Positions 39,658-50,291 of a DNA stretch of 64,000 bases are shown here, piece after piece. The DNA is taken from sequence record OK254198.1; one strand, written 5' to 3'. Source of the stretch: Escherichia phage PSD2001. The notes under the pieces were generated by a model. That model was not told where the DNA came from. It did no database searches and was given only the letters and a program-made list of their open reading frames with translations. The position numbers and the translations under genes were made by a program. The first letter of the stretch is position 1. Each line of letters starts with the position of its first letter.

Positions 39658-39665
39658 TATAAATA
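39658..39665 (+). promoter_or_regulatory. late promoter TATAAATA for gene 34
   Basis: TATAAATA ~31 nt upstream of the gene 34 ATG. Confidence 0.55.
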
Positions 39666-43661: not shown

Positions 43662-44792
43662 ATGGAAAAATTTATGGCAGAGTTTGGACAAGGATACGTC
43701 CAAACGCCAGTTATATCAGAAAATAATGCCGTTAAATTTAAAATGAGTATAGCAGGGAGCTGTACTCTTTCCACGGTGAAATCGTATATCAAATTTCAGG
43801 ATGAACGAATTGGACCAACTACTTTTGGTAATGGTCTGACTCTATTGGAAATTGATACAACTACGAATAAAATTGTTAACACGAAAAACTATTCATTAAC
43901 TAGCACACATGATGCAATCAGTCAGGCATTAATCACCTTTGTGGAATCTGTTCCAGCCGGAAGATTGATTGCTTTTATTTCTTCAGGGAAACTAAACGCA
44001 TCACAGCCATTAATTGATTGGTTCCGTAAATGCGGTTCAAGGGCATTCCCAGATAAATGGCTGATTGATAAAGTTGATACATCATACTCGGCTTTTTACA
44101 TAACCGGCCGGAACGTAATTGTTTCGGAGCATGTTAAGTATAATGACGGGAAGTTAGTTGAGGATGTTTCGACTCCGCTTGAAGTCATTTATGATACCTT
44201 TAGTGATATAGGAGCAACAGGCTATCCTGTGCGCATAACGGAAGACGAGAGCACGTATTCATCAACAGGTGATGGAACATCAACCGCAATTAGAAGGTTC
44301 CCCACAGAGGACCTGGTGACTCCTATGAGCACCTATAACCTTTTACCTTTGGATGTGCTTTACCTGAAGTTTCAGATGTCATTTGACGCCGCACTGAAAG
44401 CTGCCGGGACTGTAAGGACTTCGGTTCGATTCTTTAAAAGTCCTAGCACTTCTCCGATATCAAATACAAACATCGATATTGCGGCAAACGTTCCAGCTGG
44501 TGCATGGGCAAGTTTCGAAAGATATGTCGAGATTCCAGCGGGAGCCGATGGCTTTACAGTAGTAACATCAAGGACTGTAGCTGTGGGAACTGGGTCAATA
44601 CGTAATATTGTTATTGGCGAGATAACCAGAGGCGATTCGGCATTCAAACCAGCTGAATTTGGTGTCAACGGCATAAGGATGTCATATGCAAACGATGCAA
44701 CAAATACAGGCAATACAATTGTAACATTACCAGATGCACAAGCTCCGAGAGCCGGCAAGATATATGCAGCCGAACTACGGGAAAAACAATAG
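43662..44792 (+). CDS. 35: long tail fibre hinge protein gp35
   Basis: 376 aa (T4 372), synteny. Confidence 0.8.
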   Translation: MEKFMAEFGQGYVQTPVISENNAVKFKMSIAGSCTLSTVKSYIKFQDERIGPTTFGNGLTLLEIDTTTNKIVNTKNYSLTSTHDAISQALITFVESVPAGRLIAFISSGKLNASQPLIDWFRKCGSRAFPDKWLIDKVDTSYSAFYITGRNVIVSEHVKYNDGKLVEDVSTPLEVIYDTFSDIGATGYPVRITEDESTYSSTGDGTSTAIRRFPTEDLVTPMSTYNLLPLDVLYLKFQMSFDAALKAAGTVRTSVRFFKSPSTSPISNTNIDIAANVPAGAWASFERYVEIPAGADGFTVVTSRTVAVGTGSIRNIVIGEITRGDSAFKPAEFGVNGIRMSYANDATNTGNTIVTLPDAQAPRAGKIYAAELREKQ

Positions 44793-44816: not shown

Positions 44817-44824
44817 TATAAATA
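44817..44824 (+). promoter_or_regulatory. late promoter TATAAATA for genes 36-37-38
   Basis: TATAAATA ~35 nt upstream of the gene 36 ATG. Confidence 0.55.
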
Positions 44825-45515: not shown

Positions 45516-48500
45516 ATGGCTACTTTAAAACAAATACAATTTAAAAGAAGTAAGGTTGCCGGCGTTCGCCCGGCGCCAACAGTTCTTGCTGAAGGTGAAC
45601 TGGCTATCAACCTGAAAGACCGCTTACTTTTTACTAAAGATGACACCGGCGCCATCATCGACCTTGGCTTTGCCAAAGGTGGTAATATCGACGGAAACGT
45701 TATTCATAACGGTAACTACAATCAAACCGGTGATTATACCCTAAATGGTACCTTTACCCAAACAGGTGATTTTAATTTAACCGGTATTGCTCGTGTAACT
45801 CGTGATATTATTGCTGCAGGTCAGATAATGACTGAAGGCGGAGAACTTATTTCTAAGAGTGCTTCAACTTCTCATTTGAGATTCTTTGATGGTGCATCAC
45901 GTGAACGTGGTATTATCTTTTCTCCTAATAATGCAGGTTTGACAACTCAGGTAGTTAATATCCGCGTTCAAGATTATGCCGCTGATAGCGAAAGCATTTA
46001 TGCGTTTTCAGGCAACGGTGTATTTTCTTCACCTGAAGTATCGGCACGGAAATCTATTTCATCCCCACAAATTCTGACCGATAAAGTTATTACAGATGGG
46101 AAGAAGACGGGCGATTATGATATATCTTCATTAGCAAATAATAATTCTGACACGGATAAAAACTATTTGCGCATTGTACGTACCGACCCAGCGTCTGCAA
46201 TACTTCATGAAATTTGCGAAAATAACGGCATAAGTTGGTATTCAGGTTCGACTCCAACTGAGTATATGTTGTCATTTTCTTATTCCGGTGGGGTGCAGGC
46301 AGGACATTCTATTGCAGTAGGTATGGAATCAGGCCCGATGGTTGGTTCTGCCTTAGGTAAAGGTTCAATTGCCCTCGGTGATAATGATACCGGATTTAAA
46401 TGGCATCAAGATGGGTATTTTTTTAGCGTTAATAACGGCACAAAAACTTTCCTTTCTGGCCCGGCGGAAACCACCAGTCTTAGAAAAATGGTTATGGGTT
46501 ATTCTGTAAACGGTACCGATTTAACCACTCCTCCGGTGGAAAATTATGCTTTGGCTACTGTTGTCACTTATCATGATAATAACGCGTTTGGAGATGGTCA
46601 GACTCTTTTGGGTTATTATCAAGGTGGTAATTATCACCACTATTTCCGCGGTAAGGGTACTACAAACGTTAACACTGCTGGCGGTTTGTTAGTTACTCCT
46701 GGCAATATTGATGTTGTTGGTGGTTCTGTTAATATTGATGGCCGAAATAACAACTCAGTTTTGCTTTTTAAAGGTTATACCACTGGTCAGAGCTCTGTTG
46801 ATAATATGTCTATTGCCGTATGGGGTAACACCTTTAATACAGTAGATGGCATCCGTAAAAACGTGATGGAAATTTCTGATGCAACTAGTTGGATGCATTA
46901 TATTCAACGAACAACTGCAGGTAAAGTCGAATCTGTTATAAATGGCACCCAGATTGTTAATGAAAACTTGACAGTAGTAAAAAATGCTACATTTGACGGT
47001 ACAATCAGCGCAGCCGGTGAAATCGCGACAAATGCTGTAAATGGTCTTCGTATTTGGAACAATGATTACGGTGCCATTTTTAGACGTTCAGAAGGAAGTC
47101 TTCATATTATTCCTACAGCATTTGGCGAAGGACAGAATGGTGATATCGGCCCACTTCGTCCATTTAGTATATCTTTAGATACAGGTAAGGTTGTTATTCC
47201 TGACTTGGATTTGAGTTATGCTTCTTTTGCAGCAAACGGCTATATTAAATTCGGTGGGCATGGCGCTGGTGCAGGCGGTTACGATATTCAATATGCACAA
47301 GCAGCTCCTGTTTTCCAAGAAATTGATGATGACGCGGTAAGTAAATATTATCCTATTGTTAAGCAGAAATTCTTACAAGGAAAAGCTGTTTGGTCTTTAG
47401 GTACTGAAATTAATTCCGGGACTTTTGTTTTGCATCATTACAAAGAAGACGGGACCCAAGGTCATACATCAAGATTTAATGCCGATGGTACAGTTAACTT
47501 CCCGGATAACGTCCAAGTTGGTGGTGGTGAAGCTACTATTGCTAAAAATGGCAATATTTTCTCTGATATTTGGAAAACATTTACTTCAGCTGGCGATGTA
47601 ACTAATATTCGAGACGCTATTGCCACCCGTGTTGCTAAAGAAGGCGATACAATGACCGGCAAATTAATCGTTAAAAGAGACTCCGACGCTATTAATATTG
47701 CTGCTGGTGATGAAACTGATTCTGGCTATTTACTTGGAACAGCAGGTGGAGTAAATTCTTGGTACGTTGGTAAAGGTGGAGCAGATGACAGTGTTTCATT
47801 TTATAATTTCAAAACTACCGCAGGAATTACTCTTAATAGTGTAGGTGATATTGATTTTAATGTTAAAAATCAAGCTACTGCAGCTTCATTAAATTTTTAT
47901 CGCTTATATTTAAATGGAAGACAGTGGGTTGCTACACAAGGTCACGGTTATGGAAACCAATGGCAAACAGAAGCTCCTTATTTCGTCGACTTCGGTGAAT
48001 CTGTTCCTAAAGATAGTTATATGCCAATTATCAAAGGAAAAAGCACTCTAATTACCGATGGATATTCTACTAAAGCAGACTTCGGTATTATTCGATTGGG
48101 TGGAGCTGCTACTTGGGGTTCTGCTGTTATTCGTGTGGGTTCTGCTGAAAGTGGCGATGCAAGTCACCCTAATGCTATATTCGTTTTTGGGGCCGACGGC
48201 ACCTTAACCGCTCCCAATGCTTTGAATGCCTCAGGTCGAATGGGCATTGGTACAGCATGTACATTACCAAATGCTTCTCTTGCCATAGGTGATAACGATA
48301 CAGGCTTTGCCACTAGAGGCGACGGAAGCCTAGGAGCCTATGCCAACGGTCAGAGTGTGTTCTTCTGGGAATTTAACGGTATTACGACCGAGCAAAATAA
48401 GTTTTTAAACGTTAATGCCGGTATGTATGTTCGTGATAATATTGACGTTAATGACGTTTATATTCGTTCTGATATCCGTTGTAAGTCAGAAATTAAGCTT

Positions 48501-48785
48501 ATTGATAACGCCCAAGAGAAATCCAAACTCTTAGGTGGTTACACTTATTTGCTTAAAAACTCCGTTACTGATGAAGTTAAACCCTCTGCTGGTTTGATTG
48601 CACAGGAAGTTCAAGAAGTATTGCCTGAACTTGTGACTGAAGATAAAGAGACTGGCTTACTTCGTTTGAATTATAACGGTATTATCGGTTTAAATACTGC
48701 TACTATCAACGAGCATACTGACGAAATCAAGGAATTGAAATCTGAAATTGCTGAATTGAAAGCATTAATTAAATCATTATTATAA
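45516..48785 (+). CDS. 37: long tail fibre distal subunit gp37 with C-terminal chaperone-like domain
   Basis: 1089 aa; last ~105 aa (from SDIRCK at ~48468) resemble a tail-fibre intramolecular chaperone domain. Confidence 0.85.
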
Positions 48786-48812
48786 GAAAGGGCCTTCGGG
48801 CCCTGGAGGTTT
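48786..48812 (+). terminator. stem-loop / weak terminator between 37 and 38
   Basis: Hairpin GGGCC-ttcg-GGCCC, then GGAGG RBS and T-run before the gene 38 ATG. Confidence 0.4.
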
Positions 48813-48814
48813 TT

Positions 48815-49600
48815 ATGGCAGTAGTAGGAATACCTGGTTGGATTGGAACATCAGCAGTGGCCGAAACAGGTCAACGTTGGATGTCTGCAGCTTCTAGAGA
48901 ATTGCGTCTAGGGAACCCATCTTGGATGTCGCAATTTGCTGGTCGGTCAAGAGAAATTATTCACACAGTAAGTGAAAACCATAACTTTAACGGTCAATGG
49001 TTCCGCGACCGTTGCTTTGAAGCTGGCGCTGCCCCTATTGTGTTTAATATCGTCGGGAATATTGTATCTTATACTCGTGATGTTCCGTTGTTCTTTATGT
49101 ATGGCGATACACCTAATGAATACGTTACTTTGAATATCCACGGCGGTGTTCATATGTGGGGACGTGGTGGGAATGGCTGGGCAGCAGGGGCGATAAATGC
49201 CTCAAACGGCGGGGATGTTATACAAAATGATATTGGGGGTCGATTACGTATATGGAACTATGGTGTCATTGCTTCAGGTGGCGGCGGTGGCGGTGGATAT
49301 TCAATGGCCAACAACTGGGCTGGTAAGTATGTGGCCGGTGGTGGTGGTGGTCGTCCATATGGTTTAGGCGGTACTAATGGTGCCGCTTGGCCCGGTGGTA
49401 ATGCTTCTTATGAAAGTCCAGGAGCTGGTGGTAATACAGGGCAATATTGGGCCGGTGCAGGTGGCGATGCTGGTGCCCCTGGTCAGGCTGCAAATCCTGG
49501 TCATGGTTATTCTACCCCTCCTATGGCCGCCGGACGCGCGGTGTTCGGAAGTTCTCCTGCTTGGGGGGCAACGGGCACTATCTATGGCTCATGGTTATAG
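48815..49600 (+). CDS. 38: gp38 tail fibre adhesin, T2-type (glycine-rich)
   Basis: 261 aa; C-terminal half with repeated poly-Gly blocks ([32 protein letters not shown]) separated by short variable segments. Confidence 0.8.
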
Positions 49601-49637: not shown

Positions 49638-50291
49638 ATGGAACCAAAAGTAGGAATATCAATACCCGACCTACTTTTTGGACTTCTTGATAGAATTTTT
49701 AAAGATAATGCGACCGGGAAAGTTGTTTTTTCCAGGGTACTAGTTATTGTTCTATTATTTTTAATGGCGGTAATCTGGTATAAAGGTGATGCACTTTTAG
49801 ATGCGTACAGGGATGCTTCATATGCCTCATACACTGAAATGATAAGGCAAGACCAGGATAACAGATTTAAAATTGCAGCTATCGAGCAAATCCAGATAGT
49901 CCACTCGTCAAGTGGGGCAGACTTTACAGCAATATATTCTTTTAGACCAACTAACCTTAACTACTTTGTGGATATGGTGGGATACGAGGGGATATTGCCT
50001 GATACAGTCGACGAAAAAAATTTAGGTGGGTTTCCAATAGATAAAACTTCGGCGGAATATTTGGCGGGGGTTAATGGTAATTATTTTGAATCCAGTACGG
50101 AATCTGTATTCTTACCAACAAAGAAAAAAAGCAGCTTCACATATATGTTCAGCTGCCCATTCTTTAATTTGGAAAACGTTTATGCAGGTACAGTCTCACT
50201 GTACTGGTATAAGCAAAAACCTAACCTTGGTTTTGATAGGCTTTCTGCTATGTGTGGACAAGCAGGTCGTACGCTCGGGCGTACACGTTAG
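49638..50291 (+). CDS. t: holin T
   Basis: 217 aa; strong similarity to remembered T4 T (LFG.LDR.FKDNATGKV, one TM helix, YSFRP.NLNYFVD). Confidence 0.9.
   Translation: MEPKVGISIPDLLFGLLDRIFKDNATGKVVFSRVLVIVLLFLMAVIWYKGDALLDAYRDASYASYTEMIRQDQDNRFKIAAIEQIQIVHSSSGADFTAIYSFRPTNLNYFVDMVGYEGILPDTVDEKNLGGFPIDKTSAEYLAGVNGNYFESSTESVFLPTKKKSSFTYMFSCPFFNLENVYAGTVSLYWYKQKPNLGFDRLSAMCGQAGRTLGRTR

Follow-up and report, generated by a model that had tools for sequence, protein, structure and literature searches.

The distal tip of the T2/S16-type long tail fibre is textbook architecture, known from T2 since studies of 1985-87, from a crystal structure of S16 since 2018 and from the structure of PP01 since 2026. 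T2 provides the classical system of a gp37 processed at its C-terminus and a gp38 adhesin bound to the virion (Riede, Drexler and Henning, 1985-1987; receptors OmpF and FadL); in S16 (PDB 6F45; Dunne et al. 2018; target Salmonella OmpC) gp37 is cut at DLNVS^SDRRIKK, its last 113 residues being released and the gp38 docking surface exposed (PMC7917993), and three Trp of the gp38 N-terminal helical bundle plug into gp37 (PMC6851490). Glycine-rich motifs together with hypervariable segments constitute the published gp38 pattern (PMC3157838, PMC6851490), and gp37 tips pair with gp38 N-termini in a lock-and-key fashion (Trojet et al., PMC3157838). Here we compare with these systems genes 37 and 38 of Escherichia phage PSD2001 (OK254198, 172,175 bp; isolation host Shiga toxin-producing E. 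coli O157:H7 EDL933; PMC9241756), which lie on the plus strand of a 64,000-nt window of that genome (the whole stretch of DNA that was analysed, to which all positions refer). We are highly confident that the locus represents the distal tip module of a T2/S16-type long tail fibre, an architecture already well described; what the present analysis adds is that gp38 is, as judged from its sequence, a mosaic in which PP01/CAM-21-like loops are mounted on a VR5/JS98-like scaffold.

The open reading frames and their family memberships were read directly from the DNA, and the two proteins were set against gp37 and gp38 from 13 other T2-type phages (VR5, JS98, CAM-21, bov9_1, Bas38/AugustSocin, T2, S16 and six IMG/VR contigs), gp37 being extractable for 12 of them; the variable segments of gp38 were compared with those of T2, S16, PP01/CAM-21, VR5, JS98 and Bas38 (T6 and Ox2 were left out). 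Gene 38 is situated directly 3' of a gp37 with an S74-type chaperone and 5' of the holin gene t, and the order 37, 38, t recurs in T2, S16, CAM-21, bov9_1 and Bas38. With S16 the locus further shares the SDxRxK motif and chaperone, the three Trp, and the Gly motifs with five loops; it differs in gp38 (identity ~50%), in the last 190 residues of gp37 (43%), in the residue preceding the cut (Arg in PSD2001, DVYIR^S, as against Ser in S16, DLNVS^S), in the length of the chaperone (105 amino acids (aa) as against 112-113 aa) and in its gp38 loops, which are unrelated in sequence to those of S16. T2 is alike in carrying SDIRxK (at residue 1243 of its gp37) and the pattern of ten Gly runs in gp38, and differs by a gp38 identity of 46% and a gp37 tail identity of 37%. 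PP01 (PDB 9V85; PMC12892980) has all five gp38 loops of the same type and likewise infects O157:H7, whereas the scaffold (beta-helix and C-terminal strand) and the N-terminal domain of PSD2001 gp38 are of the VR5/JS98 type, and in what has been published on the phenotype of PSD2001 the emphasis lies on capsule and lipopolysaccharide (LPS), not on OmpC. T4 has the genomic position, the long-tail-fibre design and homologous N-terminal and shaft regions of gp37 in common with PSD2001, but its gp37 lacks an S74 domain and its gp38, which is not in the virion, is purely an assembly chaperone (PMC12892980, PMC6851490), as the first-pass annotation of this DNA had also held.

The gp37 chaperone and the gp38 adhesin

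That annotation had taken the last ~105 residues of gp37 for a chaperone-like domain adjoining an SDxRxK-type site, and the profile search that it proposed, against Peptidase_S74/chaperone-of-endosialidase models, bore this out. Pfam PF13884 (Peptidase_S74, "chaperone of endosialidase") covers residues 985-1041 with its whole model (1-58/58), scoring 46.5 bits (4.6e-12) for the complete protein and 52.6 bits (5.6e-14) for the isolated tail (curated threshold 22). It begins exactly at S985, the Ser of SDIRCK, the codon of which starts at 48468, and the tail residues that had been quoted proved exact. With 105 of the 1089 residues, the domain makes up the extreme C-terminus of the distal fibre subunit. 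Among solved structures, the closest relative is the S16 gp37 C-terminal construct 6F45_A (2.7e-32, residues 917-1088), which is also reached by the 105-aa tail alone (6e-22, with MYRF 7DC3 at 0.018), and a profile of 12 gp37 tails extends to 6F45_A (2e-43), the self-cleaving domain of MYRF (7DC3, 4e-9), the tail-fibre chain 8JOV (1e-6) and the released chaperone of the GA-1 neck appendage (3GUD, 5e-4), residue 1 of which (the S of SDERHK) aligns with S985. What PSD2001 shares with endosialidase, the GA-1 neck appendage and MYRF (PF13884) is the location C-terminal to a trimeric beta-structure, the SDxRxK Ser-Lys site and the profile match; the similarity is remote and concerns the chaperone only, the passengers (tailspike, appendage and transcription factor) being unrelated.

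The motif S-D-x-R-x-K occupies an equivalent position, 99-113 residues short of the C-terminus, in 12/12 extractable gp37 (T2 and S16 included), and its S, D, R and K are invariant in all 14 tails of the alignment; other core residues (Y27, G42, A45, Q46, L52 and P53, numbered within the domain) do not vary among 12-14 homologues, and the SDIRCK variant itself is found in VR5, JS98, Bas38 and bov9_1, all viable phages. S985 and K990 would constitute a Ser-Lys catalytic dyad, an assignment that follows what Schulz et al. reportedly described for the endosialidase chaperone in 2010. That the domain is a degenerate relic, devoid of cleavage and leaving gp37 at full length, appears very improbable in the face of this invariance, of the presence of SDIRCK in viable phages and of a domain score more than twice the Pfam threshold; nothing specific speaks for such a relic beyond a Cys at residue 989 (V, L or I in relatives) and the fact that the chaperone fold could not be modelled. 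The model in question (a single-sequence AlphaFold2 prediction of the 105-aa domain, with a long helix at 69-104 and, being a monomer, incapable of showing a trimeric helical bundle) reached a mean predicted local distance difference test (pLDDT) score of 49 and a predicted template modelling (pTM) score of 0.24. A model of this quality is unusable, also for fold searching, and it counts against our interpretation to the extent that the fold is not supported by it. The sequence evidence from Pfam and PDB is already decisive.

On the strength of homology (alignment to the S16 and fPS-phage sites and to 3GUD), cleavage is predicted at DVYIR984^S985, which would yield a 984-aa fibre (104.7 kDa) and a 105-aa chaperone (11.6 kDa). 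Proteolytic processing of T2 gp37 is, going by its title, reportedly the subject of a 1986 article by Drexler et al. In the fPS phages the predicted cut reads DVYIR^SDGRLK (PMC7917993), and the residues ahead of it in PSD2001 (917-984), which have the GDNDTG and DVYIR motifs in common with the relatives in the alignment, are expected to carry the gp38 docking surface, a role assigned after PMC6851490 and PMC7917993. The closest tip is that of VR5, with 99% identity over the final 89 residues of gp37. As a separate observation, the gp37 shaft (45516-48467) is strongly mosaic: in 100-residue bins the best relative shifts among JS98, VR5, L008 and CAM-21, and identity spans 23% to 98% inside one pairwise comparison. 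Residues 413-563 of gp37 (46752-47204) are, moreover, homologous to the C-terminal trimerisation region of gp34 (PF21446, 2.2e-7; PDB 4UXE/5NXF, ~2e-15).

The next gene had been described as coding for a 261-aa poly-Gly protein of the T2-type adhesin kind, a description with which all profile and structure matches agree: Pfam GP38 (PF05268, 7.3e-75, 252 bits) and Gp38_N (PF21721, 1.6e-20, 73.3 bits; cut-off 25 each), phrog_2056 of PHROGs (2e-107), and in the PDB PP01 9V85 (8e-102, residues 40-259) and S16 6F45_D (7e-52, full length). The receptor-binding domain is 80% identical to the crystallised PP01 domain, the alignment containing two gaps of a single residue each. Glycine amounts to 57 residues (21.8%) and is concentrated in residues 115-246 (31.8%, vs 10.5% in residues 1-114), with ten runs of at least two Gly between residues 110 and 217 (G7 at 155-161 and G5 at 175-179); all ten Gly motifs that would form a polyglycine-II sandwich are thus present in the sequence. 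The segments between the Gly blocks, supposed from the outset to be variable, are so in the alignment of 14 gp38 sequences, where pairs of sequences are on average 35% identical across the five loop regions and 74% identical elsewhere in the receptor-binding domain. The W9, W22 and W37 columns are invariant in the same 14 sequences, with the exception of the truncated L004, which lacks the first. As the gp37 tip is VR5-like and the gp38 N-terminal domain identical to that of VR5 in 46/46 positions, the pair agrees with lock-and-key pairing (PMC3157838).

A different arrangement is implied by Wang et al. 2025 (PMC12323348), the only receptor study of PSD2001, who take the gp37 C-terminus as the receptor-binding site, as in T4, and assign LPS binding to gp37, a purified C-terminal fragment of ORF165 (gp37-like) having competed with the phage for commercial LPS at concentrations of at least 100 nM; from the paper's description we infer ORF165 to be PSD2001 gp37, and the term gp38 is absent from it. 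Although the competition result speaks for a T4-like organisation, in which the gp37 C-terminus would stay on the virion as the receptor-binding tip and gp38 would be an assembly factor only, we attach next to no likelihood to it. In BLASTP, neither gp38 against T4 gp38 (E = 11) nor the C-terminal 289 aa of gp37 against the C-terminal 226 aa of T4 gp37 (E = 0.65) shows similarity, and on these values a T4-type tip (a gp37 needle with gp38 as its chaperone) was ruled out; furthermore, the T4 gp37 tip is missing from the PDB search matches of gp37, the final 105 residues form a Peptidase_S74 chaperone whose dyad is intact, and gp38 is close to a crystallised adhesin over its receptor-binding domain. 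The competition for LPS also agrees with a mature gp37 shaft that binds LPS laterally, or with binding that is non-specific, and the paper leaves the ends of the construct unstated. Contrary to PMC12323348, the extreme C-terminus of gp37 is a chaperone that should be missing from virions.

Taken together, these observations suggest the following course of events for the T2/S16-type module. The 1089-aa gp37 would be synthesised as a precursor, the last 105 residues of which would act as an intramolecular chaperone of the Peptidase_S74 family that trimerises and templates the fold of the preceding trimeric beta-helix. This chaperone would then remove itself by means of the Ser985-Lys990 dyad, cutting between R984 and S985, and its release would expose the DVYIR-ended tip, onto which (by homology) one gp38 monomer would dock through W9, W22 and W37 of its N-terminal helical domain. 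The docked gp38 would display five hypervariable loops on a rigid polyglycine-II sandwich, and it is these loops that would bind the host receptor and set the host range.

Scaffold and loops of gp38

The mosaic nature of gp38 can be read directly from the alignment (Table 1): the scaffold segments are closest to VR5 or JS98, and the loops to PP01, CAM-21 and bov9_1 (in PP01, loop A comprises W119-I124 and loop C N184-W189; PMC12892980). Summed over the five loops, 43/53 residues (81%) are identical to CAM-21 and bov9_1 (PP01-type), as against at most 18/53 for every other type, the OmpF-using Bas38/AugustSocin included. The PP01 residues Y159, K168, Y169, Y209 and Y230 are kept in PSD2001 (as Y162, K171, Y172, Y211 and Y232), while Q161 is replaced by M164 and A228 by H230 (N in CAM-21), and G208 is missing.

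At the DNA level the loops are 67-83% identical to PP01-type genes, on account of which the idea that a PP01-type phage had donated them recently was rejected; the mosaic is old, or its donors are unsampled. Another chimera was observed in bov9_1 (L010, 4501-5283), the gp38 of which combines loops and scaffold of the PP01/CAM-21 type with an N-terminal domain of the VR5/JS98 type (45/46 identical to that of PSD2001) and has as its partner a gp37 tip reading NDVYIR^SDIRCK. Judged from sequence, this second chimera is again what one would expect if gp38 modules are exchanged where the attachment domain meets the body.

The receptor of PSD2001

In PP01, gp38 binds OmpC of O157 via loop E, the main element of OmpC specificity, with the assistance of loops B and D; Y159 and Y209 are functionally critical (Y209 being essential) and G208 dispensable, the mutation A228D abolished infection and Q161L lowered infectivity, and K168/Y169 of loop B were proposed to touch LPS sugars (PMC12892980). 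As the PSD2001 loops are of the PP01/CAM-21 type and the critical PP01 residues are kept, we predict by homology, and with modest confidence, that OmpC of E. coli O157:H7 is the terminal protein receptor of PSD2001 gp38, K171/Y172 of loop B being residues that may also contact the LPS outer core. Close gp38 relatives generally have a common receptor (PMC12032242), and the isolation of PSD2001 on O157:H7 EDL933 was counted in favour of OmpC. Furthermore, a 2026 preprint states that PSD2001, as it encodes a Gp38 adhesin, must recognise an outer-membrane protein, the identity of which is as yet unknown; it also shows that T-even phages with a gp38 commonly depend on capsule, LPS core and porin together when they infect O157.

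Several points weigh against this prediction. According to Wang et al. 2025, PSD2001 depends on the O-antigen capsule (etp) and on the outer core of R3 LPS (waaF, waaG and waaO; partly waaR), and proteinase K leaves its adsorption unreduced, from which polysaccharides were concluded to be the sole receptors (PMC12323348); the competition of the gp37-derived fragment for LPS, set out above, points in the same direction. The residues corresponding to PP01 A228 and Q161 are His and Met in PSD2001, and changes at both positions (A228D, Q161L) harm PP01, though CAM-21 has Asn at 228. With DNA identities to the PP01 type of just 67-83%, the loops have diverged as a set, and what they recognise may have shifted.

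These points leave a doubtful yet real possibility that the architecture is as described (a cleaved gp37 capped by gp38) and the receptor something other than OmpC, either another outer-membrane protein or carbohydrate only (R3 LPS outer core and/or O-antigen capsule). Such a receptor would account for adsorption that is insensitive to proteinase K and sensitive to periodate, and for the reported finding that waaG and waaO mutants are completely and an etp mutant partly resistant (PMC12323348); it would also sit well with the retention of K168 and Y169, the proposed LPS contacts of PP01, with A228->H and Q161->M falling in specificity loops, and with the 2026 preprint naming no outer-membrane protein for PSD2001. 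Set against it are the loops themselves, 81% identical to those of the O157-phage PP01 type and unlike those of the OmpF type (Bas38) and the FadL/OmpF type (T2). Moreover, outer-membrane porins in intact cells are typically protease-resistant, a matter of general knowledge. The common receptor of close gp38 relatives (PMC12032242) likewise argues for OmpC, and OmpC abundance falls in LPS-core mutants (PMC12892980); given this fall, and given that K168/Y169 may touch LPS, the published genetics is compatible with a porin receptor. No ompC mutant is described as tested with PSD2001 in the sections of PMC12323348 that were consulted.

It is improbable, in our estimation, that a gp38 with PP01-type loops on a VR5-type scaffold has shifted from a porin to a glycan-only receptor (R3 LPS outer core and/or O157 group 4 capsule), as would follow if the published adsorption to polysaccharide only, insensitive to proteinase K, were correct to the letter; a few loop changes (A228->H, Q161->M and the loss of G208) would then have redirected a polyglycine-sandwich adhesin from a protein to a glycan, a natural example of such retargeting. 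CkP1 (PMC10175313) was considered as a precedent for an LPS-binding fibre of the gp38 type and rejected, its gp37 being described as a T4-like needle.

Genomic setting and meaning

The features of the locus are collected in Table 1. Exact copies of the T4-type late promoter consensus TATAAATA stand on the plus strand at 39658 (g34), 44817 (g36) and 49612 (t), 30-45 nt upstream of start codons, the window containing ten copies vs 4.7 expected by chance; between 44825 and 49611, that is, from g36 to the end of gene 38, no exact TATAAATA occurs. As none separates genes 36, 37 and 38, these probably constitute a single late transcription unit and would be transcribed together late in infection. 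The 29 nt that separate gene 37 from gene 38 (48786-48814) contain a GC-rich hairpin of the C(UUCG)G type directly ahead of GGAGG, and a hairpin occupies the same spot in VR5, JS98, CAM-21, T2, S16 and four metagenomic relatives, with other stems (GGGGC/GCCCC, GAGCC/GGCTC and AGAGGGC/GCCCTCT). Read by eye, the stem changes look compensatory (the MAFFT intergenic alignment being out of register with the stems), and the minimum free energy z-score of the hairpin, from the window alone, is only -1.27 and unremarkable.

Table 1. Features of the fibre-tip locus of PSD2001 (window positions; identities are counts of identical residues)
Feature	Position	Strand	Details
T4-type late promoter consensus TATAAATA	44817..44824	+	exact match, 5' of gene 36; function from consensus only
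Gene 37, distal long-tail-fibre subunit precursor	45516..48785	+	1089 aa, 116.3 kDa; phrog_1699, 1232 bits over 1-1089; identical to UIS66074.1 of PSD2001
gp37 residues 917-984, distal beta-helix tip ending DVYIR984	48264..48467	+	aligns with S16 gp37 ahead of the cut (6F45_A)
Predicted autoproteolytic cleavage site R984^S985	48465..48470	+	from alignment to S16 and fPS-phage sites and 3GUD
SDIRCK motif, S985 + K990 putative Ser-Lys catalytic dyad	48468..48485	+	at N-terminal edge of domain
gp37 C-terminal intramolecular chaperone (Peptidase_S74), residues 985-1089	48468..48782	+	105 aa, 11.6 kDa; heptad-like helical tail
Intercistronic hairpin A-GGGCC-UUCG-GGCCC-U	48789..48804	+	between gene 37 stop (48783-48785) and gene 38 ribosome-binding site
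Gene 38 Shine-Dalgarno GGAGG	48805..48809	+	then 5 nt, ATG at 48815; conserved in relatives
Gene 38, T2/S16/PP01-type tail-fibre adhesin	48815..49600	+	261 aa, 26.8 kDa; identical to UIS66075.1 of PSD2001
gp38 N-terminal attachment domain, residues 1-46	48815..48952	+	Gp38_N match 1-42; W9, W22, W37; closest VR5 46/46; PP01-like CAM-21 25/46
gp38 receptor-binding domain, residues 47-261	48953..49597	+	beta-helix and glycine-rich (polyglycine-II) sandwich, ten Gly runs
gp38 loop A, residues 121-131	49175..49207	+	PP01, CAM-21, bov9_1 9/11; VR5, JS98, others at most 3/11
gp38 central scaffold, residues 132-160			closest VR5 29/29
gp38 loop B, residues 161-174	49295..49336	+	PP01/CAM-21/bov9_1 12/14; others at most 5/14
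gp38 loop C, TNGAAWP, residues 187-193	49373..49393	+	PP01/CAM-21/bov9_1 5/7; JS98 also 5/7
gp38 loop D, NTGQYWAG, residues 207-214	49433..49456	+	CAM-21, bov9_1 8/8; PP01 6/8
gp38 loop E, residues 228-240	49496..49534	+	PP01/CAM-21/bov9_1 9/13; others at most 4/13
gp38 C-terminal strand, residues 241-261			closest JS98 20/21; VR5 and JS98 18-20/21; PP01 type 10-11/21
Holin t	49638..50291	+	217 aa; Pfam Phage_holin_T PF11031, 2.4e-66

The backbone of the window is ~96% identical to Shigella phage SP18 and E. coli phages P896 and 212, whereas genes 37-38 find their nearest DNA match in the phage collection at just 86% identity over 87% of the query, and gp37 and gp38 each stay singletons when ~15 billion proteins are clustered at 90%. 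Elsewhere in the window, residues 57-128 of the hinge connector gp35 (43662-44792) match Pfam ILEI (interleukin-like EMT inducer/FAM3; E = 1.1e-6, 29.5 bits vs a cut-off of 27). A 'GG' domain common to phage gp35 and the FAM3/POMGnT1 proteins has been described. Escherichia phage 212 (PQ765507) is the PNJ212 of PMC12323348 and matches positions 1-25000 of the window (genes 37 and 38 thus not included) with 96.2% identity over 99% of the query. According to that paper, PNJ212 carries a T4-like gp37 that binds OmpC and is 14.6% 'homologous' to the PSD2001 protein (PMC12323348); between the near-identical genomes of PNJ212 and PSD2001 this would be a swap of the whole fibre-tip module, T4-type vs T2-type.

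PSD2001 is used in therapeutic cocktails against E. coli O157:H7, and its sequence corrects the description of its receptor-binding protein: the C-terminus of gp37 would be a cut-off chaperone, and the real tip would be gp38 with its PP01-like loops. For PSD2001 itself, the prediction is a dependence on OmpC, possibly along with loop B touching the LPS outer core. If OmpC is indeed the receptor, it would be the outer-membrane protein that the 2026 preprint requires for PSD2001, and ompC-based resistance would overlap with that against the companion phage PNJ212, which would bear on the design of cocktails.

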